Shown: positions 2,091 to 44,075, numbered from the stretch's first letter. The stretch is DNA of 64,000 nucleotides from Nitrospirota bacterium (GCA_963790025.1 CAWBMP010000003.1:212799-276798), one strand, 5' to 3'. The notes: generated from the sequence alone by a model not told the origin. Made by a program: numbers and translations.

Positions 2091-5000
2091 CTAGTTGGAA
2101 GAGCTGATAGCTACTCCTGTTACTGCGCCGGTTGTCACCGGAACAGTGGCCGCCGGGTTTGCAAATGTATACCCCGACTTGGTCACCGTAATAGTATAGG
2201 TGCCTGGCACTACGTTTGTGAAGGTGAAGGCCCCACTGGCGTTGGTGCTGGTGATACCCTTGGTCACGCCACTGAGCTTAAGGGTAAGAGATGCTGCCGA
2301 AAGCGGGGTGCCAGCCAGGTTAGTCACTGTGCCGCTGACCGCGTATTTGGCCGGCACCGTTACCTTCTGGCTGGAGGTTGCGCTTATGCCCGAAACAGTA
2401 GCGGTGTCAACAATCGTAAAGGTGTTGTTTGTAGTATAGGTGTGGGTAAACACACCGCCTGCACTGCCTGTTGAAAGACCGGTGCCGTCACCCCAGTTGA
2501 TGGATACCGAGGAACCTGAGGTTGAGCTGTCTGTCAGGGTAACGGTCGAGCCGGTTACACTGAGAGCAAAGTTGTCGGTGGGAGCGATGTTCACAGCCAC
2601 CGTGCTGGTCTGGAAATCGTACATTTCATTAGTCGTGTCGTAAACCATCAGCTGAACAGTGTACTGATTGGAACCGACGGTTGGAGTGAACACATGCTGA
2701 CCTGAAGTGCTGGTATTAAGGATGCTTGTGTTGTTGGCACCGCTTGCGGGATCACCGAAATTCCAGTCGTACACACAGTTGCCGCTAGGACAGGTCGCGG
2801 AAGAGGCATCGAAGTTTACTGTACCGGTCTTGTCCTGTGTCTGCTGCCAGGTGAATTGGGCTGCAGGAGTACCACTGTGCATGTTCCTTGCGTCTGCTGC
2901 CAGCTCAGTTTTGGATTTGTAAGGAGCATTATTGGTGACGTAATTGGATCCGAAGCTTCCGCCGTGGCACTGGCCGCAAGCCATATCAAGGTCGACCCAG
3001 ACAGCATTGTTATATAACACTGTGGCATCTTTCTTGAATTCCGGTGCGGTTTGTGCGTCTCTATCCATCAGGGTTCCGGCGGGCAAGGCACTCCATGTGC
3101 CGCTGTTCGCGGTACAATTGGCGGAACTGGTATCAGACTGGTACACAACAGGTAAACTCGGAGCATTCTGGACCGGACCGGCATGTACGCTGCACGTTCC
3201 GTTGTAGAACTGGCCCGTTGTCGGGAAGGTACTGTAAGTTGAACTTGAATTGATTCTCCATACATGGACCGGCATCGAATTCTGATTGCCGTTTGCCAAG
3301 GCCTGTGTAGCCATGTGGCAGACTTCGCACGAACCATTGGGATAGAGAGTGGTATCGAACGGAGTACCGGGAGTCTGAGGATGATTAAACGATGCTACCT
3401 GCGGTGTAGCAGTGTCGGTAGCGCCGGTCGAAGCATTGTTCACGTGGCAATCTGCACACGTTTTTCTGATGGCCGCCCCTGCCTGGCTGTCTACAAAGAG
3501 GCTGTTGTGAACATCATGACAGGTGGTGCATGTACCCTGGTAGCCGGACTGAGTTGTGGCTCCACCTACATCATCTCTCCAAGCGTAGCCTGATATGGCA
3601 GTACATTGTGCCTGGGTTGTAATCGGCGAGCCGTTGCTCTGGGTCGTTGCCAGACTGCTGCTGGTGCTGCCCTGGAAGCAGGAGTAGCCTTTGAATATAC
3701 TGTTATATTCTGCTGCCACGGCTGTGCCTGCAGAATCATAAAGATCATTTTCACCAAGGGGGTTCGGCGTAATGGAGCCGTTGCCGGTCTGTGCGCCGAG
3801 GTATCTGGCATGAACGCTGTTCAGGAACGAGTTGCCGAGAACATGGCCGTTGAAGTCGCGGCCTGCTGCTGCCCCGTGGCTGACACCTGTCGGGATTATT
3901 GTCGGATCAAACTGTGATGTTCCGCTTGTTGAACCGCCCTCGGCTGGATACAACTTTGCGATACTCTGGTGGCAGCCGAAGCAGAGATTATTCCTGCCTA
4001 CTCCATCAGCGAGATTGCCCATTCCACTACTTGTAGGATATGTTGAAGGGAAGGACGATGCGGCAATCTGAGCCGCAGTTACCGAAGGAACAGTTGCATT
4101 GTGACATCTTGAGCAGTTGATGCCTTCGAGGTCCCAAGCATAGCCGGCTTTAACAGCACTGGCATAACCTGCGCCGGCGGCAGTGGGCTGTTGCCCAACG
4201 TATCCAGGGGTGCCGACTGACTGCACACCTGGTGTTGCGGCAGTGCCGCCACTAAAGCCGGTCGAATGGCAGTTTGCACAACTGTAATTGCTGCCTGCAA
4301 TAGCAACGCTCGGAAGCGCAGCCATCCAGTCACCATAGATGTAATACATAGGATTCGAGCCGTCCAAAGCACTTCCGGCGGCCCCAAGAACTCCAAATGT
4401 CATCGCATTTGTGCCGTCGGTAGTATAAACAACGCCGTTAGCACCTGCCCACGCGAGGCCGGGTGTGACCTTCCTCAGCATGTTTTTATGGCCGGTCTGA
4501 AGATACGAATCTTTGTATCTGTTGAACGGGCCGTTATACTGCACTAAAGTGCTGTGGCAGTGGAGACAACCATTATCGCCATTTACAGCCTGCTGGGTGA
4601 GGTCAAAAACGACACCCTTGGTAATGGAGGTATCAACAAGCGTAACCTGATATCCCGGACCCATGGGAATCCAGTTGGACCAGGAGCCGCCATTTGCAAG
4701 ACATGCTCCCTGGGTGGTAAGAGTGCTCAGATCAACAGTTGCGCCTGCTGCTGCGGTTACTCCGCCGATTACGGCAGTACTTCCAGTTACAGCCGTTAAG
4801 GCACTGTTAAGCGGTCCGGCGACACCATAAGCATAAACGCAGTTGCCTGAGCTAACAGACCAACCAAATGATGTCGTGGCGTTGGTGCTTGTGGATGGGC
4901 AGGTCGATGAAGTGTAACCAGTCGCTCTCATACTTGTATAGCAGAAACCTGTGTTGGACGCTTGAGTGGTACCTTGCGCCCCAAAAGTCAGAGGATTTCC

Positions 5001-5591
5001 GCTGCCATCCTGTCCCCTGAACTGCCAGCCATAGGCTATACACATGGCCGAAGTGCCGTTAGCTTTATTGTTGACGCCCGTGGCATTGGCTAATACGCCC
5101 CCCAAGGCATTACACATTTGAGAGTCCCTGTCCAGGTTCTTCAAAGAAATGCCGGTTAGAATGTTCCCGCTTCCATCAATTGTCACGCAGGTGCTGCTGC
5201 CCGGTGCGGCATACTTGAGGCCTGATGTGTTGCTTCCTGTCTTTCCGCATACATTGGCCAAAGTGTCGTTGGAAGTGATCGCAGTCACGGAAACAAGCCT
5301 CGCATCGCAATCTCTCTTGGTGAGAATAGTAGGATCAGTAACCATATTGCCGCTAGCGTCTATGCTGAGAACGCATATGCCGTCACTGGGTGCTATCCAG
5401 TTGCTGAATGTAACACCACCAGTTGTCCCGTTAGCATTAGTAGCGGTAAGATGTATGCCGTCAGCGGCTACCACACCATTCTGAACCGCACCGTCACTTT
5501 GGTACATTGCCCCGGCATTTCCTATCATCATAAATGAAGAAATGACAAGGGCAACGATCGACATGAGAATCATCAAACGTTTTTGCTTCAT
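2091..5591 (-). CDS. 1166-aa secreted octaheme cytochrome c with Cys-rich N-region, two PKD-like domains and a C-terminal carboxypeptidase-regulatory-like beta-sandwich
   Basis: Signal peptide; 8 CXXCH (CLHCH, CANCH, CSRCH, CFGCH, CTTCH, CADCH, CEVCH, CGQCH); YDWNFGD and INWGDG PKD motifs; C-terminal VSGTVT...GTYTITVTKSGYTF. Confidence 0.9.
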   Translation of the reverse strand: MKQKRLMILMSIVALVISSFMMIGNAGAMYQSDGAVQNGVVAADGIHLTATNANGTTGGVTFSNWIAPSDGICVLSIDASGNMVTDPTILTKRDCDARLVSVTAITSNDTLANVCGKTGSNTSGLKYAAPGSSTCVTIDGSGNILTGISLKNLDRDSQMCNALGGVLANATGVNNKANGTSAMCIAYGWQFRGQDGSGNPLTFGAQGTTQASNTGFCYTSMRATGYTSSTCPSTSTNATTSFGWSVSSGNCVYAYGVAGPLNSALTAVTGSTAVIGGVTAAAGATVDLSTLTTQGACLANGGSWSNWIPMGPGYQVTLVDTSITKGVVFDLTQQAVNGDNGCLHCHSTLVQYNGPFNRYKDSYLQTGHKNMLRKVTPGLAWAGANGVVYTTDGTNAMTFGVLGAAGSALDGSNPMYYIYGDWMAALPSVAIAGSNYSCANCHSTGFSGGTAATPGVQSVGTPGYVGQQPTAAGAGYASAVKAGYAWDLEGINCSRCHNATVPSVTAAQIAASSFPSTYPTSSGMGNLADGVGRNNLCFGCHQSIAKLYPAEGGSTSGTSQFDPTIIPTGVSHGAAAGRDFNGHVLGNSFLNSVHARYLGAQTGNGSITPNPLGENDLYDSAGTAVAAEYNSIFKGYSCFQGSTSSSLATTQSNGSPITTQAQCTAISGYAWRDDVGGATTQSGYQGTCTTCHDVHNSLFVDSQAGAAIRKTCADCHVNNASTGATDTATPQVASFNHPQTPGTPFDTTLYPNGSCEVCHMATQALANGNQNSMPVHVWRINSSSTYSTFPTTGQFYNGTCSVHAGPVQNAPSLPVVYQSDTSSANCTANSGTWSALPAGTLMDRDAQTAPEFKKDATVLYNNAVWVDLDMACGQCHGGSFGSNYVTNNAPYKSKTELAADARNMHSGTPAAQFTWQQTQDKTGTVNFDASSATCPSGNCVYDWNFGDPASGANNTSILNTSTSGQHVFTPTVGSNQYTVQLMVYDTTNEMYDFQTSTVAVNIAPTDNFALSVTGSTVTLTDSSTSGSSVSINWGDGTGLSTGSAGGVFTHTYTTNNTFTIVDTATVSGISATSSQKVTVPAKYAVSGTVTNLAGTPLSAASLTLKLSGVTKGITSTNASGAFTFTNVVPGTYTITVTKSGYTFANPAATVPVTTGAVTGVAISSSN

Positions 5592-6175: not shown

Positions 6176-6191
6176 TGGCACACAGCTTGCT
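6176..6191 (+). promoter_or_regulatory. Sigma-54 (-24/-12) promoter for the OmcE-like gene
   Basis: TGGCACACAGCTTGCT, near-consensus TGGCAC-N5-TTGC. Confidence 0.8.
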
Positions 6192-6357
6192 TCTACAAAG
6201 GATAAGATTTCGGAGATTACCTGCCGGTAAAAAGTTTTAGGAAGTGCCCTTTCTTTAGATGGGGGTCCGAAGAGGGGCGAGAGAAAATCTGCTTTAAGCA
6301 GAATGAAATCAGCAGGAACTGTAAGACTAAAAAATACTGATCTAGGAGGAATTAGCA

Positions 6358-7212
6358 ATGAAGAAACAATTGGTTTTAGTGCTGGCACTGATGCTGGCGA
6401 TGTTTTTGGTAGGTAATGCATATGGTTATACGCCCGGCGCAGGTATTAAGACAAGCCCGCATGACCTCAGTAAGGCAGGCGGCAGCATAGGCAAGCCCTA
6501 CGGCGGGGCAACTGAACAGGCCGGCCTGGACAGAATTTGCGTGTACTGCCATGCCCCTCACCATACGATAAAGCCAAGCGATGCGTCAACTTTAGCTTAT
6601 AGTTATGTGCCGCTATGGAACCATGATTTAACCACACAGACATTTACTATGTATACAAACAATTCTGGTAATGTCTCTGGTGATCCTACCCGCCAGGCTC
6701 CCGGCTCCGGCGGTCAGGTGAATAATCTTGCGGCTACTGCGGGGAGCCCCTCAACGCTTTGCCTCAGCTGCCACGATGGAACAGTAGCAACTGACGCATA
6801 CGGCAACGGAGGCGGTCCCAGCAGTTCAGGCTACGGCAGCTACAACTGGTCGCCTTCCAAAAGTTCCGGCACCCAGTTCATCCAGAATAACGCATACCAG
6901 ATCGGCGCAGGCGGAGACCTTAGCAATCATCATCCCATCGGATTCGACTATATCAAAGCATACAATAACAGCCAGAGCAGCCAAAACGGAGATTACGCAC
7001 TTGCGAACATCAGCACACCCATGGGAACCGGCAGGACAATAGGCCAGCTTCTGTGGAATGCAACATGGAATACTAATAGGACGACTCAGACGGGCGGCAC
7101 TATGGAGTGCACCACATGCCATTCCGTGCACAACAAGGCCAACACCGGCCAGAGACTCCTGTGGGTAGAAGACACAAACAGCGCCTTCTGTATGACCTGT
7201 CACCTTAAATAA
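6358..7212 (+). CDS. omcE: OmcE-like secreted tetraheme cytochrome c (nanowire-type)
   Basis: Signal peptide; motif order HDLS...ICVYCHAPH...PLWN...LCLSCHDG...DLSNHHPIGF...ECTTCHSVH...FCMTCHLK, matching my recollection of Geobacter OmcE; NHL gene downstream. Confidence 0.8.
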   Translation: MKKQLVLVLALMLAMFLVGNAYGYTPGAGIKTSPHDLSKAGGSIGKPYGGATEQAGLDRICVYCHAPHHTIKPSDASTLAYSYVPLWNHDLTTQTFTMYTNNSGNVSGDPTRQAPGSGGQVNNLAATAGSPSTLCLSCHDGTVATDAYGNGGGPSSSGYGSYNWSPSKSSGTQFIQNNAYQIGAGGDLSNHHPIGFDYIKAYNNSQSSQNGDYALANISTPMGTGRTIGQLLWNATWNTNRTTQTGGTMECTTCHSVHNKANTGQRLLWVEDTNSAFCMTCHLK

Positions 7213-7231
7213 GTTTCATCTCTATTCGTAC

Positions 7232-7267
7232 AAAAAGGGGGGGATGGTCAGCCATTCCCCCCTTTTT
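7232..7267 (+). terminator. Intrinsic terminator after the omcE-like gene
   Basis: AAAAAGGGGGGGATGG-TCAG-CCATTCCCCCCTTTTT. Confidence 0.8.
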
Positions 7268-7280
7268 AATGGAAAAACAA

Positions 7281-7372
7281 AAGGAAGTATCTGAGTGTCT
7301 GAGCATCAAAGCAGGGTCTTCAAAAGTCTTTTACTTTAATGCTGTGACACTCTGATACTCTGACACTTCCTT
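7281..7372. repeat. Imperfect palindrome built from degenerate 8-mers
   Basis: AAGGAAGTATCTGAGTGTCTGAGCATC ... GACACTCTGATACTCTGACACTTCCTT. Confidence 0.6.
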
Positions 7373-7468
7373 CTGGTGGTTAAATGATAAAACTGTCAGT
7401 TATGTGGTATTCTAAAATTGTTTCTCCCTGCTATGGAAGAGAACGATATTACGTAAAGAGGTGTTGTA

Positions 7469-8656
7469 ATGAAAAAGCTGTTTATTTTCTGCACAGCATT
7501 TGTGTTTGCCGTGGCGGTCGGTTGCGCCATGCCCGAGAAAAAAGAGGAAACCAAGGTTTTCTACCCGGAACCTCCTGAATTGCCACGCATTCAGTTTCTC
7601 GCGTCGTTTACAGGGTCAAAGGACATTGAGCCCGAGAAGTCGGCCCTGGATGTCTTTCTGACCGGCAAGGAATCGGGCAGACTCCTGCAAAAGCCGTATG
7701 GAGTTGCCATTTACAATGGGAAGATGTATGTCTGCGACACAATGCAGGGCGTTATGATCTTCGATTTTCAGAAGAGGATGTTAAGGCCCCTGCAGGGCGA
7801 CCGCGGGCCCGGCAAGCTGGTGCAGCCGATCAACATCAGCATAGACAGGGCCGGAAATAAATATGTGGCCGACCCTGCCCGCGGACAGGTGGTTGAATAC
7901 GATAAGGACGATTTCTACGTAAGGGCGATCGGGACGCCCGGCGGGTGGAGGCCGGTGGATGCCGCAGTATACGAGGACAGCGTTTATGTGGCCGATATAA
8001 AAAACGCCGAAATAAAGGTGTTTGACAGAGAGACCGGAGCTCCCGTCCGGCAGTTCGGCCAGACAGGAGAACCGAAAGACCGTCTGTCGCTGCCGGCCAA
8101 CATCGCATTTGACCCTGAAGGAGACCTCTATGTTTCGGACATAGGGAGATTTCAGATCGTAAAGTTCGACCGGGACGGCCATGTCAGGGGGACGTTCGGT
8201 GAGCTCGGCTCCGAAGCGGGGCACTTTGCCCGGCCCAAGGGAATCTCTGTCGACCGGAACGGCAATCTGTATGCGGTAGATTCCGCATTCGACGTGGTGC
8301 AGATGTTCGATAAAGATGCGCATCTCCTGCTTTTCTTCGGCAAGGCTGGGACAGGTCCGGGCGACCTCCAGCTCCCCGCAAAGGTCACTGTGGATTACGA
8401 CAACGTAAAGTATTTTGCAAACTATGCAGACCCAAAGTTCGATATCCAACATATAATTATCGTGACGAACCAGATGGGCGACCGCATGGTCAATGTGTAT
8501 GCTTTCGGCAAAGAGAAGGGGAAGAAATACCCCAGCAATGAGGAATTGGAAGCACAGGTAAAAGAGAAGTTCGACAAGCTCAGGAAAGAGCAAGAGGGAA
8601 AAAACAAAGGCAAGGCGGAGGAAGGAACAGACGAGGGCACAAAAAAGTCCGAATAA
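7469..8656 (+). CDS. NHL-repeat beta-propeller lipoprotein
   Basis: Lipobox VAVGC; repeated P-x-x-I/V-x-x-D...YVxD units (PYGVAI, PINISID, PANIAFD, PKGISVD). Confidence 0.9.
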   Translation: MKKLFIFCTAFVFAVAVGCAMPEKKEETKVFYPEPPELPRIQFLASFTGSKDIEPEKSALDVFLTGKESGRLLQKPYGVAIYNGKMYVCDTMQGVMIFDFQKRMLRPLQGDRGPGKLVQPINISIDRAGNKYVADPARGQVVEYDKDDFYVRAIGTPGGWRPVDAAVYEDSVYVADIKNAEIKVFDRETGAPVRQFGQTGEPKDRLSLPANIAFDPEGDLYVSDIGRFQIVKFDRDGHVRGTFGELGSEAGHFARPKGISVDRNGNLYAVDSAFDVVQMFDKDAHLLLFFGKAGTGPGDLQLPAKVTVDYDNVKYFANYADPKFDIQHIIIVTNQMGDRMVNVYAFGKEKGKKYPSNEELEAQVKEKFDKLRKEQEGKNKGKAEEGTDEGTKKSE

Positions 8657-8673
8657 CGGCAGTTTCAAGAACA

Positions 8674-9270
8674 ATGGCAATATGGACAAAAACGGTGTTG
8701 CTGCTCTTCCTTCTGCTCATTGCGGCGGGATGCTCCCGACAGCAAGTGTTGCCTGACCAGTCAGAAAACGTACCGAGCGCGACGAACGGACTATATCGCG
8801 TGTTGGGCTTTTTTATCGATGGATTGACACCGCCTGAAAAGGATAAAGACGCGGGGGGCAAAGTAAGCGCTGAAGCGCCGGGATCGAAGAAAGAGGCGCT
8901 AGGGTACAGGGAACATGGCCCCTATGCAGCTAACCTCTGCGGAGCTTGCCATGTACAGACCGGAAGCAATCAGCTTATTATGCCCGTTGAGGAGCTTTGC
9001 CAGAATTGCCACGTCTTGAATCTCAAAAAGAAAAAGGTCCACGGCCCGGTCGTGACAGGCGGGTGCAAAGTTTGCCATGATCCGCATGCCTCGCCGTACC
9101 GCTTTTTACTTGTGTCCGAATCGAAGGACTTTTGTTATTATTGCCACTCCCGGACGGATATCGAAAAAAGGGAGGTGCACAGGAAAACCGATGTTGGGTG
9201 TACTTATTGTCACGAGGCCCACGCATCAGACAATGAATACTTGCTGCGAACAGAAGAGGTCGGGAAATGA
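8674..9270 (+). CDS. Pentaheme cytochrome c lipoprotein
   Basis: Lipobox IAAGC; CGACH, CQNCH, CKVCH, CYYCH, CTYCH with HGP spacers. Confidence 0.9.
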   Translation: MAIWTKTVLLLFLLLIAAGCSRQQVLPDQSENVPSATNGLYRVLGFFIDGLTPPEKDKDAGGKVSAEAPGSKKEALGYREHGPYAANLCGACHVQTGSNQLIMPVEELCQNCHVLNLKKKKVHGPVVTGGCKVCHDPHASPYRFLLVSESKDFCYYCHSRTDIEKREVHRKTDVGCTYCHEAHASDNEYLLRTEEVGK

Positions 9271-11303
9271 AGCGCATACTGTGGCTTTTCTTTCTGACTG
9301 CGGCAGCGGTTGCGTCCCCCTCCGTTGCCATGTGCGACATGCAGCAGTTCATACCGAGGATCATAGATTACAGCGGGGAGTTCGACATCTATATGCTGCG
9401 TCAGGCAAACGACAATAAAACGACAAGTGCAAGGACATCGACAGTCGATACTTCCGCCATCGAACAGTTCAGGCTTTCTTCGGCCGGGTATATATACCAC
9501 CCGGCATTAATAACGTTTCTCGCGAGCGGATCTTTTGGCCTGCTCCAGGACCAGTTCAAAAACAACGGTACTGCGGCTCCCTGGAGCAACACCGATGCCA
9601 ACGAGTATAACCTGACGCTTCATGTTCTCCCTGAAAAACAGTATTCCCTCGACCTGCTCACCTCGCGTTCGGAGCCTTTTGCGAGTACAGGAGCATTCAC
9701 CAATATTCGGCCGGTCACTTACGTCAACAGTGCGACTTTTTACTATCGTGGAAGTCCCATAAACTTTTCCACCGGCTACACCGATACCAGGACCGTATCT
9801 GACACAACGACAGACTCACGCTTGCTCAACTTTCAGGCCCAACATGGCGTGCAGCACAGCTTCACTTCTGTCGGATATAGCCGCAGCGACAGCACATCCA
9901 GTGCGGGGACCGATTATTCCAGGGACTATTATCTCCTGTCTAATCAGCTGCAGTTCGAGCGGCTGCTCCTGCGCAGCGAGCTCAAGTATGATGACTATAA
10001 TAACAAAGACCTTTTTCAAACCACTGACGGCACCGACAACTCATGGACCGAATATCTGCACCTGAAACTTCCCTGGCGTTTCGAATCGGACCTCACTTAC
10101 AGCCGGACATACAGCGATTCAAAGTCCGTGCCCATCGCCAACTCCGCTGCTTCGGCGCCGCAGAAGCAGTCCAATACGAACGATTCGCTCAATGAGGTTT
10201 TATCGCATCGCCTCGGTGAGAGCCTGTTCACATCATACGCGTACAATGACACTACCAACAAATCTTCGGGTGGACAGTCCGACAACAATAGCAATTCGGT
10301 GAGTGTCTTATACACGAAAAAGATCCCCTGGGGAACATTTACAGCAGGGACCGGCTACACCGTTATGAAGACAGACAATATCGGGTCTGTCATTACGCTG
10401 AACGAGGTACATACGTCAAAGGCCGATGGAATAGATTCCTTCACCCTGCAGCCCGGCTTGATCGACCCTGCTACGATCGTTGTAGATCTCGTCGCACCCG
10501 GGACCGGGATCATCTATCCGTTGGTCAATAACGTAAATTACCTGATCGACCATATCGGCAATACGTTCAGGATCACGGTCCAGTCGTTCTTTCTCTTCCC
10601 TGTCCCCGGGTTTACCCCCAATCCGGACATCAATTTTGCATACACCTATAATGTGACCTATAGAAGCACGCAGGGGACATTCGGCCTCCAGACAAACACC
10701 ATCGCCTACAACGCCGGTCTTGCGCTCTTCGCGAACCTTCTCAACCCATATTATAGCCATCAGCAGTCTGACCAGACCTTGGTGTCGGGTTTTTTTCCGG
10801 GAGAGTTATCGAGCTTTACAGTGGACACGGAGGGCATCGTGGTCCAGAAAGCGCCTTTCAGGCTTTCGACAGAATACCAGAAGTATGACTCCGCAAGCAA
10901 CCCGAGCAGGACCTGGAGGTCGCGGTTCGACTTCTGGGAGAACATGATGCGCTCGCTGTCCCTTTCGGCAGGGGTTTTCTATAACAAGAGCAACTTTTTG
11001 CAGAGCCAGTCCGGTGCCGGACTGACAAGCCCTTATTCCCAAACAGTGCGCGGGGTGAATGTCTCTGTACAGAAAATATTCCCATGGAACCTGAACCTAT
11101 CGGGATCAGGCTATTTTGCGCAAACGACCGGACGCACCGAGTCAAACAACTATTCACTGAACGGGGTGCTAACATGGCGGGTGGGCAGGCTGTCTGTTGA
11201 TTTGCAGACGACATATCAACTCGTTGATTCGGTAATTAGTGGTGCAAAACAAACGACTGCCTCAACCATGTACCTGCTCAGGATACGAAGACAGTTGTTT
11301 TAG
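9267..11303 (+). CDS. Putative outer-membrane beta-barrel protein
   Basis: Signal peptide, alternating S/T/Y/N-rich amphipathic strands, C-terminal Phe (LRIRRQLF); located among cytochrome genes. Confidence 0.75.
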   Translation: MKRILWLFFLTAAAVASPSVAMCDMQQFIPRIIDYSGEFDIYMLRQANDNKTTSARTSTVDTSAIEQFRLSSAGYIYHPALITFLASGSFGLLQDQFKNNGTAAPWSNTDANEYNLTLHVLPEKQYSLDLLTSRSEPFASTGAFTNIRPVTYVNSATFYYRGSPINFSTGYTDTRTVSDTTTDSRLLNFQAQHGVQHSFTSVGYSRSDSTSSAGTDYSRDYYLLSNQLQFERLLLRSELKYDDYNNKDLFQTTDGTDNSWTEYLHLKLPWRFESDLTYSRTYSDSKSVPIANSAASAPQKQSNTNDSLNEVLSHRLGESLFTSYAYNDTTNKSSGGQSDNNSNSVSVLYTKKIPWGTFTAGTGYTVMKTDNIGSVITLNEVHTSKADGIDSFTLQPGLIDPATIVVDLVAPGTGIIYPLVNNVNYLIDHIGNTFRITVQSFFLFPVPGFTPNPDINFAYTYNVTYRSTQGTFGLQTNTIAYNAGLALFANLLNPYYSHQQSDQTLVSGFFPGELSSFTVDTEGIVVQKAPFRLSTEYQKYDSASNPSRTWRSRFDFWENMMRSLSLSAGVFYNKSNFLQSQSGAGLTSPYSQTVRGVNVSVQKIFPWNLNLSGSGYFAQTTGRTESNNYSLNGVLTWRVGRLSVDLQTTYQLVDSVISGAKQTTASTMYLLRIRRQLF

Positions 11304-11355
11304 CGGGTAAACTGCTTCATTTTGTTGGAAGTTTAAATTAAGGAGGAGGAAAAAT

Positions 11356-12411
11356 ATGAGAGCGGTAATTTTGGCGGTTGCACTGGTGCTGTGGGCTTTA
11401 TCGGCGCTCGCGGGCATCACGTTTGCGGAAGAAAAAGAGGTGAAGCCGGAGACGCCTGCGGCTGCGGGGGAAAAGAAACAGCCGGTCAGGCTGTCTCAGG
11501 AGGAAGCCGGAAAGATTGTTGCAGCCAGGGTCAACGGAGTCGACATTATGCTCGATTCGGTGATGGCGATGGCGGCCCAGCTCAGCTCACAACTGCCGGC
11601 TGGTCACGGACCTCACGGTCCCGGCCAGGGGCCTGATATTGAAACAGTTCAGAAAGAGGCGCTCAACAGGCTCATATTGCAGGAACTGGCATATCAAAAG
11701 GCAAAGACAGAGGGTATCCAGGTGGAACAGAGCGCCATCGATGAAGTTTTTATGACGATCAAAGAGAAATCAGGCGGTGCAGATGCATTCAAACAGATCA
11801 TGGCAAATGAAAAGCTGACAGAAGATGCGCTCAGGGGGCAGATTGCAAGGAACCTTGCGATCGAACGCATTTATGCCAGAGAGATACGGGATAAGAACTT
11901 CAGCGTGCCGCAAGACAAAATGAAAGAAGAATACGAGAAAAACAAGGCCCAGTTCATTCAGCGGGAAAAGATCAGCCTTGTCGACGTCGTTCTTTTCCTG
12001 GATGTTGCAGACAAGGGGTCTGCCGCAAAGGCGGAAGAGGTCCTTAAAAAAATAAGTGAAAATAATAATGACCCTACGAAATTGGTCCAGGACGGCACCT
12101 TTGCCGTGAGGGACTATGAGCCGAAGAAAGACAGGGACAAGGAGCTGATCGAGGCGGCAAGAAAGCTGAAACCGGGCGACATTTCTGGTATTATAACTAC
12201 TGGCGACAGCATGCACATAATAAAGCTGATCGATTATAAGCCCGAAAAACAACTTTCGTATGAGGAAGTGAAGTCTCTTATAGAGCGCAAGCTTGCCGCG
12301 GATGAGCAGAACCGGAGGGCAAAGGAATGGTTCGAGGGACTGAAGAAGGATGCGAAGATAGAGGTGCTGGTTCATCCGGCAGACGAAAAGAAAGCCGGGC
12401 AGACGAAATAG
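11356..12411 (+). CDS. SurA/PrsA-type peptidyl-prolyl isomerase chaperone
   Basis: IVAARVNG, LNRLILQEL SurA-N motifs; LKPGDISGIITT...HIIKL rotamase motif; ends LKKDAKIEV. Confidence 0.85.
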   Translation: MRAVILAVALVLWALSALAGITFAEEKEVKPETPAAAGEKKQPVRLSQEEAGKIVAARVNGVDIMLDSVMAMAAQLSSQLPAGHGPHGPGQGPDIETVQKEALNRLILQELAYQKAKTEGIQVEQSAIDEVFMTIKEKSGGADAFKQIMANEKLTEDALRGQIARNLAIERIYAREIRDKNFSVPQDKMKEEYEKNKAQFIQREKISLVDVVLFLDVADKGSAAKAEEVLKKISENNNDPTKLVQDGTFAVRDYEPKKDRDKELIEAARKLKPGDISGIITTGDSMHIIKLIDYKPEKQLSYEEVKSLIERKLAADEQNRRAKEWFEGLKKDAKIEVLVHPADEKKAGQTK

Positions 12412-12441
12412 TATAAACGCAATACGGAGAATACTGACCGG

Positions 12442-13476
12442 ATGACGAAAATAGGAAAAAAGGGTCCTCTCATACTACTTTTTCTGGCCTTTTTAGCTAC
12501 GGCAGGGTGTGCCTCTTCCAAATGGGCGCTCGACAGCCAGGTTTCTGAGAAGCAGCTCTACTGGATGGAGGCGCCAGGGGTGGGAAAGGTCAAGCACTTT
12601 ATGTCCATAAAGGGGTTCGGAGAGACGAACTCTTCGATCCGGACATTTCTCTTCGGCACTGGAAAAAGCGTGCTGGAGCGTCCTGTCGCCTTTGCCTCGG
12701 CCAGTGACGGCAGATTTGCCATTGCCGACGCAGGCGCCCGCTGCGTACATTATTATGTCCCGGCTGAGCAGCGGTATTTGAAGCTGTCGACGCTGGGACA
12801 AGCGGACATTGCTTCTCCAGTGGGTGTTGCGTTCGACGACGAGCTCAGATTGTATATAGCCGATTCTGCACTGGGGAATATCTTCGTTGTCGACAAAAAC
12901 GGGGCCTATGTTTCTTCGATTTCCACTGCACTCGGCGTACCGTTGAAACGGCCCACAGGCCTGGCCTTCGATGTCGACAATAAGCTGCTTTACGCAGTAG
13001 ACACTCTTGCCAACGCGGTCTATGCATTCGATAAAAAAGGCGTGGCCGTATCTTCTTTCGGCCACAGAGGGGACAAGGAGGGAGAGTTTAATTTCCCGAC
13101 GCATCTGTTCTGGTCTCCCGCTGACCTGCTGTATGTCACCGACTCCATGAACTTCAGGATACAGGTGTTCACAACTGCCGGCAAGCTGGTGGCTACCTTC
13201 GGGCACCACGGCGATGGCTCAGGTGATTTTGCCTCTCCGAAAGGGGTGGCTGTCGACAGGAAAGGAGTGATCTATGTCGCTGATATGCTCTTCGATAATA
13301 TCCAGTTGTTCGATGAAAGAGGTACTTTCCTTTTGACCCTCGGCAGTCAGGGTATTGAAGAGGGCGAGTTCTGGCTCCCTTCCGGGCTGTATATGGATGA
13401 TCATGAAACATTGTATGTTTGCGACACCTTTAACGCAAGGGTGCAGGTCTTCAAGATCATGGAGGAATTGCCATGA
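12442..13476 (+). CDS. NHL-repeat beta-propeller lipoprotein
   Basis: Lipobox ATAGC; GEFNFPT, YVTDSMNFRIQVF, FASPKGVAVD repeats. Confidence 0.9.
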   Translation: MTKIGKKGPLILLFLAFLATAGCASSKWALDSQVSEKQLYWMEAPGVGKVKHFMSIKGFGETNSSIRTFLFGTGKSVLERPVAFASASDGRFAIADAGARCVHYYVPAEQRYLKLSTLGQADIASPVGVAFDDELRLYIADSALGNIFVVDKNGAYVSSISTALGVPLKRPTGLAFDVDNKLLYAVDTLANAVYAFDKKGVAVSSFGHRGDKEGEFNFPTHLFWSPADLLYVTDSMNFRIQVFTTAGKLVATFGHHGDGSGDFASPKGVAVDRKGVIYVADMLFDNIQLFDERGTFLLTLGSQGIEEGEFWLPSGLYMDDHETLYVCDTFNARVQVFKIMEELP

Positions 13477-15272
13477 GTACTGATATGGCCGAAGTATTTG
13501 AAACGCGCAAAAGCCGGCAAGCCGGCATAGCTGCAGGCTTTATCACCCTGTCTCTGTGTTTACTGCTATTGTCCCCCGCTTATGGAGCCAGGCCGAGCAT
13601 TATAAGCACCAAACACAACCTTTCCGTATCAGGTCCCGGCGAGATTAAGGCGCTTACCGAGACGCGCATATGCGTGTTCTGCCATACGCCGCATAATGCC
13701 GCCCCAAAGACGCCGCTTTGGAACAAGGCCATTCAGCCGGTGACTTATGTATTATATGAGAGCGCAACGCTCCGCGCAAAGCTGAAGCAGCCCTTTGGCC
13801 CTACACGGCTCTGCCTGAGCTGCCACGACGGGACTGTGGCATTGGGCGCGGTCTTGCAGCCTTCCGGGTCAATAGCGATGACATCGGCAACTATTCCCAC
13901 TGGAAGGGCCTCGTATATCGGGACATATCTGAGGGGAGATCATCCGGTGGCTTTTTCCTATTACGATTCCCTCAGCAACGCGGAAATCAATCCCAGACTG
14001 CCGTCGTCCCTCGTGTTCTATTACGGCGGCACCGTCCACTGCACGACCTGCCACGATCCTCATGAAGACAGGTACAAGTCTCCCGACAAAACGGGGTTTC
14101 TTACCGGTAAGTTCCTGCTTGTGAACAACAGATACACTGCCTTGTGCACAATGTGCCACACAAAAAATGGGTGGAGTGCCGGCACCCACGCATTATCAGG
14201 CGCCCAGATAAACGGGGTGCTGCCGGTTGCGCCCAGAAAATGGCCTGCCTGGATGACTGTGGGCGAGTGGGGGTGTGAGGGCTGCCACGTATCGCATAGC
14301 GGCGGCAGCCAGCAATGGCTTCTTTATAATGCCCGGGAAGAGGACAACTGCTATGCATGCCACAAGGGGAATGTGGCCAAAAAGAACATTTATGCGCAGT
14401 TCCAAAAAAGCTCACACCACGCGGTCGAGTATGCGGCCGACGTCCATAGCCCTGTAGAATCTCCGCTTATGATTACCAACCATGTCGAGTGCGACGACTG
14501 CCATAATCCTCATTCGGTATCGGGCGCCACGGCGAGCGCGCCCTATATCTCCGGACGGCTCACCTGGGTCAGCGGCGTGGATCTTAACGGCGCAGCGGTG
14601 ACTCCGGCTTCATATGAATATCAGATATGCTTTAAATGCCACGCGGATTCTACTCCGTCCATTCTGTTTTCTCCGGGGTACCCCATTCCGCGGGCCATCA
14701 GTACAACAAACCTGAGAACAAAGTTTAATACCATCAACCCGTCATACCACCCGGTTGAGGGGATAGGCAAGGTCATGAGCGTCCCGAGCATCCCCAGTCC
14801 TTATACTCCGACGCTTACCGCGACGAGCTCAATTTATTGCACTGATTGTCATGACAGTGACGAAAGCAGTTCGGCAGGTGGATCGGGCCCAAGGGGGCCT
14901 CACGGCTCGGTCTATCCGCCGATTCTCTTGATGCAGTATACAACGTATGACAATACTATAGAGAGTTTTCAGAATTATGCGCTGTGCTACCGCTGCCACA
15001 ACAGGGACACGGTCCTCTCAAGCCGGAGCTTCAAGAAGCACCAGACGCATGTTATAAACGACCAGGCGCCCTGCTCGGTCTGCCATGACCCTCACGGCGT
15101 GCCGTCTGACGCAGGGGTGACCGGCAGCCATACGCATCTTATCAATTTTAATACCAGCATTGCCAGGCCTGTTTCGGGCCAGGTCTATCCCCTTTATACG
15201 GACAATGGAAATGGGACAGGCAGTTGCACCCTTATCTGCCACGGCATGACGCATGTGAACCTGTCGTATTGA
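13473..15272 (+). CDS. 12-heme cytochrome c with OmcE-like N-terminal module
   Basis: 11 CXXCH plus terminal CTLICH; N-terminus KHNLS...ICVFCHTPHNA...PLWN...LCLSCHDG...DHPVAF parallels 6358-7212. Confidence 0.9.
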   Translation: MSTDMAEVFETRKSRQAGIAAGFITLSLCLLLLSPAYGARPSIISTKHNLSVSGPGEIKALTETRICVFCHTPHNAAPKTPLWNKAIQPVTYVLYESATLRAKLKQPFGPTRLCLSCHDGTVALGAVLQPSGSIAMTSATIPTGRASYIGTYLRGDHPVAFSYYDSLSNAEINPRLPSSLVFYYGGTVHCTTCHDPHEDRYKSPDKTGFLTGKFLLVNNRYTALCTMCHTKNGWSAGTHALSGAQINGVLPVAPRKWPAWMTVGEWGCEGCHVSHSGGSQQWLLYNAREEDNCYACHKGNVAKKNIYAQFQKSSHHAVEYAADVHSPVESPLMITNHVECDDCHNPHSVSGATASAPYISGRLTWVSGVDLNGAAVTPASYEYQICFKCHADSTPSILFSPGYPIPRAISTTNLRTKFNTINPSYHPVEGIGKVMSVPSIPSPYTPTLTATSSIYCTDCHDSDESSSAGGSGPRGPHGSVYPPILLMQYTTYDNTIESFQNYALCYRCHNRDTVLSSRSFKKHQTHVINDQAPCSVCHDPHGVPSDAGVTGSHTHLINFNTSIARPVSGQVYPLYTDNGNGTGSCTLICHGMTHVNLSY

Positions 15273-15327
15273 AGATTAGATGGAACTGTTTGCCGAATAC
15301 TTGCACACATTAAACAAAGGAGTCATT

Positions 15328-16068
15328 ATGAAAAAATCTTTGGTAGTTTTTGCCGCATTGTCTTTTATCGTATTGCCGTTTGCGGGCAGGAGCGCATACG
15401 CCACTTCTGACGGCGCTTCGGCAGCGCAGCCCGCATCACAACCTTCACAGCCGCAGAGACAGGAGGACTCCTCCCTTTCCGGCAAAGTAGTAGAAACCAT
15501 GACCAGCGGCGGTTACACATACGCCCTTATTGAGAAGAACGGCAAAAAAACCTGGGTGGCAGTGCCTGCAACAAAAATATCGGTCGGTCAGCAGGTATCG
15601 TTCAGGCCGGGAGTGGCCATGGGTAATTTTGAGAGCAAGACGCTTAATCGCAAGTTCGACAACATAATTTTTTCTACGGGGCTGCTTGGCCAGGCGCCTA
15701 TGGCCCATGGCACTGAAATTTCTTCGGACAAGCAGACTGCCGGGACCGCTACCGCTAAAAAAATAAAGATAGAGAAGGCCCAGGGGCCGAATGCTTACAC
15801 TATAAATCAGCTCGTCAAAGACAGTGCCAGACTTGACAAGCATCCGGTAATCGTCAGGGGGGAGGTAGTCAAGGTTTCCCAGAAAATAATGGGAAAAAAC
15901 TGGGTCCATATAGTTGACAACAGCGCCACGGACCATCTTGTTGTCACCTCGCAGGATTTGCCCAAGGTGGGAGATGTCGTTACCGTAAGCGGCACTCTTC
16001 ATAGAGATAAGGATTTTGGCAGCGGCTATAAGTATGCGGTGATCATCGAAGATGCGTCGATTAAATAG
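15328..16068 (+). CDS. Exported two-OB-fold protein (NrfJ-related type)
   Basis: ATG 15328 after AAGGAG; signal peptide; GKVVETM...GGYTY...WVA and IMGKNWVH...DKDFGSGYKY motifs. Confidence 0.7.
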   Translation: MKKSLVVFAALSFIVLPFAGRSAYATSDGASAAQPASQPSQPQRQEDSSLSGKVVETMTSGGYTYALIEKNGKKTWVAVPATKISVGQQVSFRPGVAMGNFESKTLNRKFDNIIFSTGLLGQAPMAHGTEISSDKQTAGTATAKKIKIEKAQGPNAYTINQLVKDSARLDKHPVIVRGEVVKVSQKIMGKNWVHIVDNSATDHLVVTSQDLPKVGDVVTVSGTLHRDKDFGSGYKYAVIIEDASIK

Positions 16069-16075
16069 CTCTATT

Positions 16076-16864
16076 CTAAAACTGTTTCATGGCAGGATGA
16101 CATCGTACACAATCGTCCAGGGGAAAGGCGACTCTGAGATGGCAAACTCCACAAGACTCCCCCCTGATCATGTAACTCATCCGCAGGCTTTCAGTCGTCT
16201 TTTTCTTTATGTTGAAAAGATCGGGATGGCAGCTGGAACAATCGAGCCATAACTCGTGTGTCTTATGGGGGAAGATCGCGGAAGATATACCGCTCATCTC
16301 TGCCTGAAGCGTAAGGGTCTTGATGTTGACCAGCTCCTTTTTTCTGTCTGAAAGGCTGTCGGCCGGTTTTATGACGCCATCTTCCAGGGCCCTGGACCAG
16401 TTAATCTCATTGCCGTATTTAGCGGGGGGCAGCGTTTTCTGGAGTGCCCTGAATTTTGTCCATTCAGAGCTTGCATTGAACCCATGGCAACCGGTGCAAT
16501 TTATACCGGTCGCATCTTTTGGAGCAAAAGAAATCTTTCCGTTATGGCAGGTTACGCAGTACTTACCGCCCATCCGTCCGTTGTCGCAGACGATAGGGGT
16601 CTCTTTGGCCCTCATCGAGAACTCAAGCTCATAATGGCAGACCCTGCAGGTATATTTGATCCTGTGTATCCAGTGAGGAAATCTAACGGCCCCCAGGTTT
16701 TCGGCAGCAGAGGCCCCACCCATAAAAATATCGCCATAAGTTTCAGGAGACGGCATTGGGGGGAGTCCAAACATACTCTGCCCAAAGGAGCTACCCGATT
16801 GGGCGCACAATAGTTGCACAGGAAGGACGATAACTGCTAATACGAGGAAAAGAGATTGCTTCAT
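16076..16864 (-). CDS. Hexaheme cytochrome with two c7-type triheme domains
   Basis: FPHWIH..CRVCH, CVTCH, CTGCH; FPHKTH..CSSCH, CGVCH, CVRCH. Confidence 0.9.
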   Translation of the reverse strand: MKQSLFLVLAVIVLPVQLLCAQSGSSFGQSMFGLPPMPSPETYGDIFMGGASAAENLGAVRFPHWIHRIKYTCRVCHYELEFSMRAKETPIVCDNGRMGGKYCVTCHNGKISFAPKDATGINCTGCHGFNASSEWTKFRALQKTLPPAKYGNEINWSRALEDGVIKPADSLSDRKKELVNIKTLTLQAEMSGISSAIFPHKTHELWLDCSSCHPDLFNIKKKTTESLRMSYMIRGESCGVCHLRVAFPLDDCVRCHPAMKQF

Positions 16865-17568: not shown

Positions 17569-17885
17569 GGCTTGTCCTTCGATTCAAGCACAAACTTGTA
17601 AAGGGAGCGGCAGTTCTCCAGCCTTTTCAGATATACCTTTTTTGTAATTTCGTCCTGCTTTTCGATAACCGGCCTCAACCTGTCACACCTTTCCACCAAC
17701 TGTGTCAACTGTTCCTTTGTCATGTCCATAGCGTCATCGGTCTGTGAGCATACGGCCTCAAATTCCTTCAGCCATGCATCTTCCGGGCGGGCAATACCGG
17801 GACACAGCAAGGCAGCCGTCAGACTTATGGCCAGCAATATGAGACCGATTGTCCAGGCTGCCTCACTATCCTTCGCTGCCTTCAT
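17565..17885 (-). CDS. Small exported helical protein with Cys residues
   Basis: Signal-like N-terminus; ATGA overlaps with both neighbours. Confidence 0.7.
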   Translation of the reverse strand: MKAAKDSEAAWTIGLILLAISLTAALLCPGIARPEDAWLKEFEAVCSQTDDAMDMTKEQLTQLVERCDRLRPVIEKQDEITKKVYLKRLENCRSLYKFVLESKDKP

Positions 17886-18721
17886 CTCTTCACTCCTTGT
17901 TCGGGTTGCTGTTCAGACGTTTCTTCAACTGGTTTTGAATGGCATCTCTGACAATCAAGCAATGGAAAAGCGACCTTCCCATGGCATACGCCACAGTATT
18001 TGCCCTCAAATATCTCCGGCATGGAGTACTTGGTCAACCCTTTTTTAACTCCTGCGAATATCTCCGGATGGCACAATTCACAACCGTTCCAGACAATATG
18101 TTTCTTGTGTGAAAAAATGATCTGAGGCATGCCCTGGACCTTGGGGTCGAGGGAAAAATCTTTCTGGATTTTGAGCGGCGGTCTCTTCACTGATATTCCC
18201 GGCAGAAAACCAATTGGTTTGATTAACCCATCAGCTTCAGCTTTTTCCCAGTTTATACCGTTACCGAACCGTTCCTTAGGCAGGTTCTCGGCAAACTTGT
18301 TGAAGTCGTATTCTTTTTTTACGTCTTTGCCCAGGGAATGGCATCTCTCACACCTGTTGATATCTTTATGACCATATTCCTTTGAACATGCCTCGAAGAC
18401 CTTCCTGTCCCGCCACTGCATTCTCCCATTATGGCAAGAGCCGCAATAATAGCCTTTCATGTTGTCTTCTGCCCTGATGCCTGTTTCACCGGCCTTCATC
18501 GCAAACGCGATGTCAACATGGCAGAGCCTGCAGGTGAAATTGGACCTGTGAAGCCAGTGGTCAAATACTACAGGGGCCAGATAGGCCTTGACCGAGTAGT
18601 TGTTTATTACCACTCTTCCGTATTCGTAAGGCAAGGGTCTTCTTTTCTTGACGCCTGACTGGGCCAATGCCAGTCCAACAAAAACCAGGCTAAGCACAAT
18701 CATAAAGAACAATTTCTTCAT
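17882..18721 (-). CDS. Hexaheme cytochrome with two c7-type triheme domains (paralog of 16076-16864)
   Basis: FDHWLH..CRLCH, CGSCH, CERCH; FSHKKH..CELCH, CGVCH, CQRCH. Confidence 0.9.
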   Translation of the reverse strand: MKKLFFMIVLSLVFVGLALAQSGVKKRRPLPYEYGRVVINNYSVKAYLAPVVFDHWLHRSNFTCRLCHVDIAFAMKAGETGIRAEDNMKGYYCGSCHNGRMQWRDRKVFEACSKEYGHKDINRCERCHSLGKDVKKEYDFNKFAENLPKERFGNGINWEKAEADGLIKPIGFLPGISVKRPPLKIQKDFSLDPKVQGMPQIIFSHKKHIVWNGCELCHPEIFAGVKKGLTKYSMPEIFEGKYCGVCHGKVAFPLLDCQRCHSKPVEETSEQQPEQGVKR

Positions 18722-18847: not shown

Positions 18848-20224
18848 TTATTCGAGGCTGAATTTCTTGATTTGATAACGAAGACTATCGTAGCTGACGC
18901 CCAGCAATTTTGCTGCCGCTGTCTTGTTCCCGCTTGTCTTCTTCAGTGCCTGGCTGGTAAGGTTTTTCTCCAGTTCTTCAAGGTCTATGCCTTTATCGGG
19001 AAGCACGAATTCTTCGGAAAAGGCCGCAGCAGGATTTGGCTGCTGGATTATCTCTTTGGGGAGATGCTCCGGCAATATCACATCCGTGCTCTCAAGCACG
19101 ACAATTCGTTCTATAGTATTCCTGAGTTCCCGCACATTCCCGGGCCACCGGTAAGAAACCATGAGTCTTTCCGTTTCCGGGGAAAAACCCGATAACATTG
19201 TTTTGTTGTACTTTGCAGAAAGACGGGAGAGATAATATCTGGCCAGCAGAAGTATGTCCTCCCCTCTGTCCCTCAGTGAAGGCAAATGCATCGAAAAAGC
19301 GTTCAATCTGTAAAAAAGGTCCAGTCGAAATTCTCCCCGATCGACAGCGTCCTGAAGGTCCTTGTTGGTCGTCGATATAATGACGACATCGATCGGGAGT
19401 TCGTCCTTGCCGCCGACACGGCGTACCGATCTTTCCTCGATGACTCTCAGCAATTTGCTCTGGAGGGAAATTTTCATCTCTCCTATTTCATCTAACAGTA
19501 TCGATCCTCCGTCAGCAGTCTCGAAAAGGCCTTTTTTGTCCGTTACAGCATTCGTAAAGGCCCCCTTCTCGGAACCAAAGAGCTCGGCTTCGAGGAGAGT
19601 TTCGGGCAAAGCTGCGCAATTGACGCGTACAAAAGGTGAATAAGCTTCATTGCTGTGCATCTGGCGATGAATATACCGTGCAACGAGTTCCTTGCCCGTA
19701 CCGCTCTCTCCGGTGATCAGAATAGTCGGTACATGTGCCTCTATGAGCTTCCCTGCCTTTGCCTTCAATTCCTGCATACATGTCGAATTGCCGATTATCT
19801 CTTTTTCGAACAGTTCGTGATTGACCTTTCTAAGGTAATTGACCTCGTGCCTGAGCCTGATTTTATCCATAGTGTTGCCGATTACGATTTTCACCTCATC
19901 CATACTGAAGGGTTTGGTGATATAGTCGGCAGCACCCAGTTTCATCGCCTTGACAGCGGTTTCGGCTGTTTCGTCTGCCGTGAGCATCACGACCTCGGCA
20001 GATAGCTTCGCTTTCACTTCCTGGAGCATATCTATTCCGTTCAGTCCAGGCATATTGATATCGAGCATAATAATATCCGGGACGCGGGAGCTTATTTGGG
20101 CCATCACATCCCTGGAACCCGTGTCGGAATAGACTTCATATCCGTCTCCCTTAAGCGCCCTCGACAGCATCATGACAATGAGTTCATCATCATCTACAAG
20201 AAAAATCTTTCCCTTCCTCTTCAT
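18848..20224 (-). CDS. NtrC-family sigma-54-dependent response regulator
   Basis: REC domain (LVDDD, LDINMP), GESGTGKE, GAFTNA, LDEIGE, WPGNVREL, Fis-type HTH. Confidence 0.95.
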   Translation of the reverse strand: MKRKGKIFLVDDDELIVMMLSRALKGDGYEVYSDTGSRDVMAQISSRVPDIIMLDINMPGLNGIDMLQEVKAKLSAEVVMLTADETAETAVKAMKLGAADYITKPFSMDEVKIVIGNTMDKIRLRHEVNYLRKVNHELFEKEIIGNSTCMQELKAKAGKLIEAHVPTILITGESGTGKELVARYIHRQMHSNEAYSPFVRVNCAALPETLLEAELFGSEKGAFTNAVTDKKGLFETADGGSILLDEIGEMKISLQSKLLRVIEERSVRRVGGKDELPIDVVIISTTNKDLQDAVDRGEFRLDLFYRLNAFSMHLPSLRDRGEDILLLARYYLSRLSAKYNKTMLSGFSPETERLMVSYRWPGNVRELRNTIERIVVLESTDVILPEHLPKEIIQQPNPAAAFSEEFVLPDKGIDLEELEKNLTSQALKKTSGNKTAAAKLLGVSYDSLRYQIKKFSLE

Positions 20225-25220: not shown

Positions 25221-25223
25221 CCC

Positions 25224-44069: not shown

Positions 44070-44075
44070 TTTAAA

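Follow-up and report, generated by a model that had tools for sequence, protein, structure and literature searches.

A cluster of eight co-oriented genes occupies positions 6358..16068 of a 64,000-nucleotide (nt) stretch of DNA from a Nitrospirota bacterium (GCA_963790025.1, CAWBMP010000003.1:212799-276798; the whole stretch is hereafter called the window). Comparison of the predicted gene products firmly identifies it as an omcE/Uet-type cluster in a non-Geobacter host, and we consider it probable that it is the Nitrospirota copy of an omcE/Uet-type outer-membrane cytochrome system that builds an OmcE-type filament. The original prediction had described an OmcE-type nanowire gene followed by a complete Osc-like assembly cassette in an apparently non-Geobacter host, and all eight open reading frames (ORFs) that it had listed were recovered, with lengths given below in amino acids (aa) and families from hidden Markov models (HMMs) where so marked:

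6358..7212, + strand: OmcE-like tetrahaem cytochrome, 284 aa, putative filament subunit (phmmer, 4 CxxCH)
7469..8656, + strand: NHL beta-propeller lipoprotein 1 (NHL1), UetH/I-like (Pfam NHL E=4e-11, lipobox)
8674..9270, + strand: pentahaem lipoprotein cytochrome (5 CxxCH, 10 His, Paired_CXXCH_1 E=3e-24)
9267..11303, + strand: putative outer-membrane beta-barrel, UetC-like, 678 aa (iterated HMM family, signal peptide)
11356..12411, + strand: SurA-like periplasmic chaperone / parvulin prolyl isomerase, UetB-like (Rotamase_2 E=2e-16, SurA_N_3 E=5e-12)
12442..13476, + strand: NHL beta-propeller lipoprotein 2 (NHL2; Pfam NHL E=6e-24; ATGA-coupled to the 12-haem gene)
13473..15272, + strand: 12-haem cytochrome, UetJ orthologue (11 CxxCH and one CxxxCH; OmcE-like N-module)
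15328..16068 (ORF opens at 15280), + strand: exported NrfJ-like protein (Atlas name 'NrfJ family protein' at 0.96)

Haem motif counts of 4 (6358-7212), 5 (8674-9270) and 12 sites (13473-15272) were borne out, the odd motif of the last being CTLICH. Pfam returned NHL repeats in both propeller genes, and SurA_N with a parvulin-type Rotamase_2 in 11356-12411, in line with the propeller and SurA/PpiC assignments made earlier. The three proteins that had been called lipoproteins have lipobox-like N-termini (...VGC, ...AGC and ...AGC in 7469-8656, 8674-9270 and 12442-13476, read off the sequence), and the tetrahaem and 12-haem proteins start with ordinary signal peptides that end AYG (read off in the same way). 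The ATGA overlaps ascribed to the cluster are real and lie at 9267-9270 and 13473-13476. For the last gene, 15328 is the likelier start, given its AAAGGAG site and signal peptide; 15280-16068 matched no Pfam or NCBIfam family, and the OB-fold attributed to its product in the original prediction stays putative. An exact-sequence cluster look-up returned no names.

The OmcE-like subunit and its conserved neighbours

The protein encoded at 6358-7212 gave a full-length match to solved OmcE chains: phmmer aligned its residues 16-284 with residues 14-232 of the Geobacter sulfurreducens OmcE filament (7tfs_A, E=1.3e-13) and also detected the D. soudanensis OmcE (9yuq_N, E=1.5e-8). The OmcE motif order proposed in the original prediction agreed residue by residue with the alignment to PDB 7tfs_A, in which the haem motifs of the subunit fall on the same motifs of 7tfs. 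Among 30 family representatives, the haem-binding triplets C61/C64/H65, C135/C138/H139, C251/C254/H255 and C278/C281/H282 were invariant or nearly so, as were the distal H35, H68, H192 and H258; four CxxCH and four further haem-ligand histidines are named as conserved in OmcE homologues (PMC13712944). By these alignments, the 284-aa protein is a genuine OmcE homologue in which none of the eight haem-ligand histidines is missing. Its gene has an AGGAGG ribosome site and is the sole free-standing strong OmcE-like gene in the genome (3.45 Mb, 98.8% complete).

A word-indexed search with 2703 candidates assigned 1076 proteins to the OmcE family at E<=0.001, and an exhaustive one gave 2329 cluster representatives. 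Within the family, the subunit falls in a long-loop subclade that it shares with sequences of Desulfobulbia, Myxococcales, Binatia and Acidobacteriota from metagenome-assembled genomes (MAGs), supported by an SH-like approximate likelihood ratio test (SH-aLRT) value of 97. It carries seven N-x-S/T sequons, mostly within loops inserted relative to other family members. Another family representative, the 1450-aa P0136, contains 15 CxxCH motifs. Two or more OmcE-like modules stand clearly in tandem in it, each of the motifs H-D-[LF]-S, PLWN-like and HP[LV]G being repeated, which indicates that OmcE units also occur fused in one chain.

To place the neighbouring genes, a degenerate-pattern scan of one genome per species was used, which yielded at least 584 confirmed relatives, of which 78 loci (L001-L078) were kept; their ORFs were searched with the window proteins and with iterated HMMs. 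The partners of the subunit gene proved to be the same as those of OmcE-like genes elsewhere, Geobacter-type loci included, and the recurrent order was subunit, NHL1, pentahaem lipoprotein, ~680-aa protein, NHL2 and 12-haem cytochrome. A core defined as subunit, NHL1, barrel, NHL2 and 12-haem cytochrome was complete in 28/78 loci from 12 named phyla and in 22 of the 34 related loci of at least 15 kb. The complete-core loci include Geobacter L033, whose free subunit matches 9yuq at 5e-25. Orthologues of NHL1 adjoin OmcE-like genes in 51/78 loci, pentahaem relatives are present in 41/78, and the barrel family numbers 47 ORFs in the 78 loci, Geobacter-type L033, L037 and L063 among them (iterated HMM). 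All six parts of the minimal omcE cluster (PMC13712944) are present here and orthologous to those of Geobacter-type loci, the barrel fold being a predicted one. Sequence comparison thus showed the neighbours to be orthologues of genes that accompany OmcE-like genes across many phyla, and in the sample the system is one conserved cassette with a spread of 12 or more named phyla. The SurA-like gene (8/78 loci; Nitrospirota locus L004 has it at the same position) and the NrfJ-like gene (5/78 loci, always on the opposite strand) are accessories.

Looked at more broadly, OmcE-like genes with at least one NHL neighbour were seen in MAGs of 19 named phyla (L001-L078). The 12 named phyla with a complete core exceed the five of the mBio paper (PMC13712944); these are submitters' labels, and mis-binning is possible.

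The 678-aa protein is likely an outer-membrane barrel. It has a signal peptide, one Cys and the C-terminus ...RRQLF, and in the barrel family R675 is invariant and terminal RxF the consensus. A 31-sequence profile showed a period-2 hydrophobic moment of z +5.75 and depleted helical periodicity (z -3.49). By position and family, the protein matches the one called a barrel in the omcE paper and in the accessible part of the Uet paper, and its nearest named Atlas clusters are porin families, at only 0.85-0.89. Pfam searches over the 31 family members found no family common to more than one of them, the profile retrieved OmpT alone from the PDB (E=0.013), and hhalign against a TonB receptor gave a probability of 1.5%. 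Taken singly, the barrel sequence gave z 0.94 for alternating hydrophobicity and z 0.38 for the moment; such single-sequence tests are powerless, because the TonB-receptor positive control also fails (z 0.46).

The N-terminal module of the 12-haem cytochrome

A complete OmcE-like module makes up residues ~36-231 of the 12-haem cytochrome. The protein matched 7tfs_A at E=4e-23 and 9yuq_N at E=3.5e-18 (residues 31-231 to chain residues 10-218), and the module matched the subunit of the same window at a BLASTP E=1e-15. At the level of families, hhalign between the OmcE and 12-haem families gave a probability of 100 and E=1.4e-55, and the 12-haem family profile found 7tfs at E=1.1e-51, compared with only a weak partial match to OmcS (6ef8, E=4e-5). 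The 12-haem orthologue of Geobacter L033 matched 7tfs over its full length (E=6.6e-29), and H-N-L-S and CxFCHTPH motifs open all 39 orthologues examined. A tree of 136 modules put every one of the 39 N-terminal modules on one side of a branch (SH-aLRT 92.7), together with two other members only, both fragments of the 12-haem gene family. Because all 39 share one side of the tree, the N-module is an old paralogue of the subunit and not a recent fusion.

Throughout 28 aligned 12-haem orthologues the 11 CxxCH and one CxxxCH are kept, and the family has ten invariant further histidines plus three at 93–96%, with one replaced by Met in one sequence. Twelve haem motifs and 13 further histidines (>=90%) are one above the protein's own haem need, that is, 2n+1. 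A 2n+1 histidine count is the anchor criterion of the mBio authors, whose Discussion calls for an OmcE-resembling anchor or tip cytochrome and whose paper finds no such anchor encoded in omcE operons (PMC13712944). The Uet authors, in the portion of their preprint available, state that UetJ and UetA 'may interact' (bioRxiv 10.1101/2022.05.06.490989), and a figure legend in a 2026 peat preprint, itself available in part, calls some 8-13-haem proteins 'OmcE-like' (10.64898/2026.05.27.727921). We put forward, as a tentative idea that we rate as somewhat doubtful, that the 12-haem cytochrome of the UetJ type may be the missing base or adaptor of OmcE-type filaments. Its N-domain, in which all eight ligand histidines are kept, would dock the first free subunit by the filament's own histidine-to-haem exchange, the other eight haems would run towards the periplasm, probably through the barrel, and the coupled NHL lipoprotein would hold the 12-haem protein at the membrane. 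If true, this would answer the mBio authors' question of how the filament starts or ends; the subunit-like N-module offers a concrete and cheap hypothesis for nanowire anchoring or nucleation, testable in Geobacter or Desulfuromonas.

We also considered the 12-haem protein as three fused OmcE modules, and rejected this as unproven. Residues 232-400 aligned with the OmcE family at an hhalign probability of 97% over 133 columns, a test that is non-discriminating because unrelated paired-CxxCH families (pentahaem, 13-haem) score 95–99% on the same targets.

Operon design, proposed function and alternatives

Four features bear on the expression of the cluster:

6176..6190, + strand: sigma-54 type promoter motif TGGCAC-N5-TTGC (exact match, 168 nt upstream of the subunit gene; putative function)
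7232..7267, + strand: intrinsic-terminator-like hairpin followed by T5 (-30 kcal/mol)
18848-20224, - strand: sigma-54-dependent response regulator (NCBIfam AtoC/NtrC-type E=3e-128, below the equivalog cut-off)
20221-22422, - strand: PAS histidine kinase (NCBIfam AtoS-type E=3e-92, below the equivalog cut-off)

The original prediction had the tetrahaem gene separately terminated and set apart from the machinery, and a strong hairpin with a T run does directly follow the gene, which also has its own sigma-54 promoter motif. The motif is the only exact match in the window (0.11 expected; at least one match in 10/100 shuffles). In the related loci, the same exact motif occurs within 400 nt upstream of 5/98 OmcE-like genes, where 0.19 would be expected, and these five make up half of the 10 exact matches over all loci. 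The hairpin, at -30 kcal/mol, compares with a shuffle mean of -14.8 (z -5.7), and 0/200 shuffles were as stable; a consensus terminator scan did not list it. Rfam gave nothing credible in 5500-7500, and a look-up of RNA data listed no entry for 6200-16100. Across loci, the subunit gene and the gene behind it are a median of 104 nt apart, and only 2/44 of these gaps measure no more than 15 nt. Terminator-like hairpins, taken as a free energy (dG) <= -12 kcal/mol together with a T run, are present behind the subunit gene in 18/56 gaps, with a mean dG of -6.2 versus -1.3 for shuffles. NHL2 and the 12-haem gene stand no more than 15 nt apart in 33 of 35 loci, and in 14/35 they have an ATGA overlap. 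A subunit gene standing apart from a tightly packed machinery operon is thus a recurrent layout, the one from which the original prediction expected more subunit than machinery. The regulator and kinase genes sit 2.8 kb downstream of the cluster, and we regard them as candidate regulators (18848..22422) whose link to the promoter at 6176 is inferred.

For the filament system that we favour, the following sequence of events can be proposed. The subunit would be made in excess from its own sigma-54 promoter, with transcription mostly ending at the terminator, and would be exported by Sec and loaded with haem by the nearby ResB/CcsB system. Its passage through the outer membrane would be aided by the barrel and the propeller lipoproteins together with the SurA-like chaperone. 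Once outside, it would polymerize head to tail in the manner of the solved OmcE filaments, where neighbouring subunits are linked by a histidine that one gives to a haem of the other. Electrons would flow from the periplasmic c7-type hexahaem cytochromes to the pentahaem and 12-haem cytochromes and on to the filament; the flow may run outwards, to minerals or partner cells, or inwards as uptake. That the partner genes act as an 'assembly machine' for the filament is inferred by analogy.

The same set of genes could also encode a porin–cytochrome conduit without a long filament, in which the 12-haem cytochrome would be a trans-membrane wire in the barrel and the tetrahaem protein a short surface cap or shuttle, monomeric or a small oligomer, possibly serving electron uptake. 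Exactly this is the Uet model for cathode-oxidising Tenderiales, as set out in the accessible part of that work (bioRxiv 10.1101/2022.05.06.490989; PMC10734462). Two proteins of the cluster are similar to DmsE/MtrA-type decahaem wires, with TIGR03508 matching the central part of the 12-haem protein at E=3e-12 and the pentahaem protein at E=8e-11 (both below the family cut-off), and just two OmcE homologues have been observed as filaments (PMC13712944). Yet the subunit keeps all eight ligand histidines of polymerizing OmcE; a separate promoter, a strong ribosome site and a terminator suit a bulk structural subunit; and a classical MtrB/PioB-type porin with a decahaem partner is already present elsewhere in the genome. 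We regard the conduit as unlikely, while giving it real weight.

Several points limit the filament interpretation or count against it. The subunit has five short insertions relative to its family, and 7tfs is closer to the N-terminus of the 12-haem protein (4e-23) than to the subunit itself (1.3e-13). An AlphaFold2 model of the subunit without haem was too poor to weigh either way on superposition with OmcE (mean predicted local distance difference test, pLDDT, 47.4; predicted template modelling score, pTM, 0.38), and Foldseek of that low-confidence model against the PDB gave no match at E<=0.001, only rows with E>9. Neither the 678-aa protein nor its profile had a Pfam match or a PDB sequence match, NCBIfam likewise gave no family for the protein, and hhalign of the barrel against the MtrB-like porin of the genome gave a probability of 1%. 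The propellers, the chaperone and the NrfJ-like protein have been given their roles purely by analogy, and the Uet authors, in the part of their preprint available, take the same parts list for a porin–cytochrome conduit for electron uptake (bioRxiv 10.1101/2022.05.06.490989).

The bias of 7tfs towards the fused module recurs in L033, where 7tfs matched the 12-haem N-module (L033:16449-18122) at 6.6e-29 and the free subunit (L033:9908-10591) at 1e-15. Two readings offer themselves: slower evolution of the fused module, or a closer kinship of G. sulfurreducens OmcE with that clade.

A further alternative is a periplasmic or outer-membrane-anchored redox module for a soluble substrate such as sulfur or metal species, instead of solids. 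It would fit a dsrA-carrying, sulfur-metabolising Nitrospirota host, and NrfJ-like proteins and c7-type cytochromes are also found in periplasmic respiratory systems. Against it, Pfam and NCBIfam revealed no catalytic domain in any of the eight proteins, the parts list is the one linked to the solved extracellular OmcE filaments, and the large exported protein, which ends in an aromatic residue, points to passage across the outer membrane. This alternative seems to us highly improbable, and the building of an OmcE-type filament stays the reading we prefer.

Host, surrounding genes and comparison with known systems

The Ffh protein encoded in the window has its best named matches, at 92% identity, in proteins labelled Dissulfurispiraceae bacterium or Nitrospirae bacterium. 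Dissulfurispiraceae is a family in the Thermodesulfovibrionales, Nitrospirota, so these relatives place the host as a Dissulfurispiraceae-like Nitrospirota and not a Geobacter, which upholds the non-Geobacter host of the original prediction. The host, whose genome has dsrA above the curated cut-off, is a sulfur-metabolising Nitrospirota. Nitrospirota is among the five phyla in which omcE clusters have been reported (PMC13712944, mBio 2026), and related clusters in Acidobacteriota and Verrucomicrobiota are described in the accessible part of a preprint (10.64898/2026.05.27.727921). The 12-haem profile was found in 22/68 species genomes and 13/24 genera of the host's family (E<=1e-20), and in 87/301 genomes and 61/128 genera of the sampled Nitrospirota (E<=1e-60). 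The locus is accordingly a further copy of a published cluster type and ordinary within its phylum. The novelty implied at the outset was overstated, and is limited because both the cluster type and its occurrence in Nitrospirota are already in print (PMC13712944); as a single locus, it adds little.

Elsewhere in the same genome, at G000:C2:169297-172441 (L090:4298-7441), lies a classical porin–cytochrome pair, consisting of a 720-aa MtrB/PioB-family porin (PF11854, E=6e-71) beside a 323-aa, 10-CxxCH cytochrome. From its sequence, this pair is a second, unrelated outer-membrane conduit. The host thus has an omcE/Uet system alongside a classical MtrB-type conduit, and in sulfidic sediments or the subsurface it is a candidate for exchanging electrons with partner cells or minerals.

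Three further cytochrome genes flank the cluster:

2091..5591, - strand: 1166-aa cytochrome with 8 CxxCH and a C-terminal CarboxypepD_reg domain (Pfam, motif count; divergent from the subunit gene)
16076..16864, - strand: hexahaem cytochrome with two c7-type trihaem domains (TIGR04257 nanowire_3heme E=6.5e-30, six CxxCH), likely a periplasmic carrier
17882..18721, - strand: second hexahaem c7-type cytochrome (TIGR04257 E=6.5e-31, six CxxCH)

In the closest loci, L002, L003, L005 and L007, homologues of the 1166-aa cytochrome lie directly upstream of the subunit on the same strand. A PKD-domain cytochrome crosses the left edge of the window, and a 450-aa, 13-CxxCH cytochrome is encoded ~9 kb upstream of the subunit gene, beyond the window (G000:C3:208399-209751; L085:14400-15752). 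The latter is orthologous (E=9e-171, 5e-168) to the cytochrome adjacent to the 12-haem gene in L002 and L007, and is also present in Geobacter-type L033, L037 and L063; after it come 7-haem and 4-haem cytochromes and a HAMP protein. With these upstream genes the system reaches past the window, and the island as a whole exceeds the limits 6358..16068 first given for it.

Farther downstream, tsaD, ccsB and resB lie in 24219-27761, ~8 kb from the cluster (ResB and CcsB at 25224-27761), and trmD and ffh in 43281-46322, ~27 kb from it. The Desulfuromonadia omcE cluster is reported to lie between resB/ccsB and tRNA-modification/ffh genes (PMC13712944); the likeness may be due to chance or to a need for haem maturation. 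The only gathering-level Rfam match in the window is a cobalamin riboswitch (RF00174, 33247-33438, + strand, 109.7 bits), which precedes a CbiS-like gene, btuF/C/D-like transporter genes and a TonB-dependent receptor (33765-39448). An IS110-family transposase (47708-48727, + strand) and a short tyrosine-recombinase-like ORF (53714-54340, - strand) lie past ffh, far from the cluster.

Among known systems, MtrAB and PioAB share with the cluster a paired-CxxCH multihaem cytochrome beside an outer-membrane protein of ~700 aa. They differ from it in that the barrel family here has no PF11854 match and, as given above, shows no detectable kinship with the genome's own MtrB-like protein, and in that Mtr systems have no NHL lipoproteins and no OmcE-like subunit. 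The osc cluster, companion of omcS in G. sulfurreducens, comprises, in the part of the source at hand, a prolyl-isomerase chaperone (OscH), channel- and propeller-like proteins (OscD-G) and the subunit paralogues OmcT and OscC (PMC13194489). Its logic is alike, and 'Osc-like' is to be taken as an analogy by description; OmcS is a hexahaem protein without sequence similarity to OmcE (PMC9473688), and no OmcS-type subunit was found in the window.

Closer is uet (undecahaem electron transfer) of 'Ca. Tenderia electrophaga' and Gallionella (bioRxiv 10.1101/2022.05.06.490989; PMC10734462), whose parts, as far as the available text describes them, correspond to those found here: UetA is a tetrahaem cytochrome, UetB a prolyl isomerase, UetC a barrel, UetH/I are NHL proteins and UetJ has 11-12 haem motifs. 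This correspondence refers to the parts list and to the Uet-like loci L054, L074 and L076, not to the Tenderia sequences themselves. On the same partial account, c7-type trihaem domains are encoded nearby in both systems, whereas here the c7-type cytochromes are hexahaem and on the opposite strand, the cupredoxin UetF is absent, and a pentahaem lipoprotein replaces the trihaem genes inside the operon.

Compared with the omcE cluster of Desulfuromonadia (G. sulfurreducens filament, 7TFS; D. soudanensis WTL bundles, 9YUQ; PMC13712944), the host phylum differs, the subunit has 284 aa and loop insertions as against 218-232 aa, and there are two additional genes, a SurA-like one that separates the barrel from NHL2 and an NrfJ-like one. 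Instead of adjoining the 12-haem gene, the 13-haem cytochrome is encoded ~9 kb upstream here, the giant cytochrome is divergently placed, and no glycosyltransferase block adjoins the cluster as in the printed Geobacter-type loci. The two clusters share the tetrahaem subunit with its four CxxCH and four distal histidines, two propeller lipoproteins, two multihaem cytochromes and the large putative barrel, all with orthologues in L033, L037 and L063.

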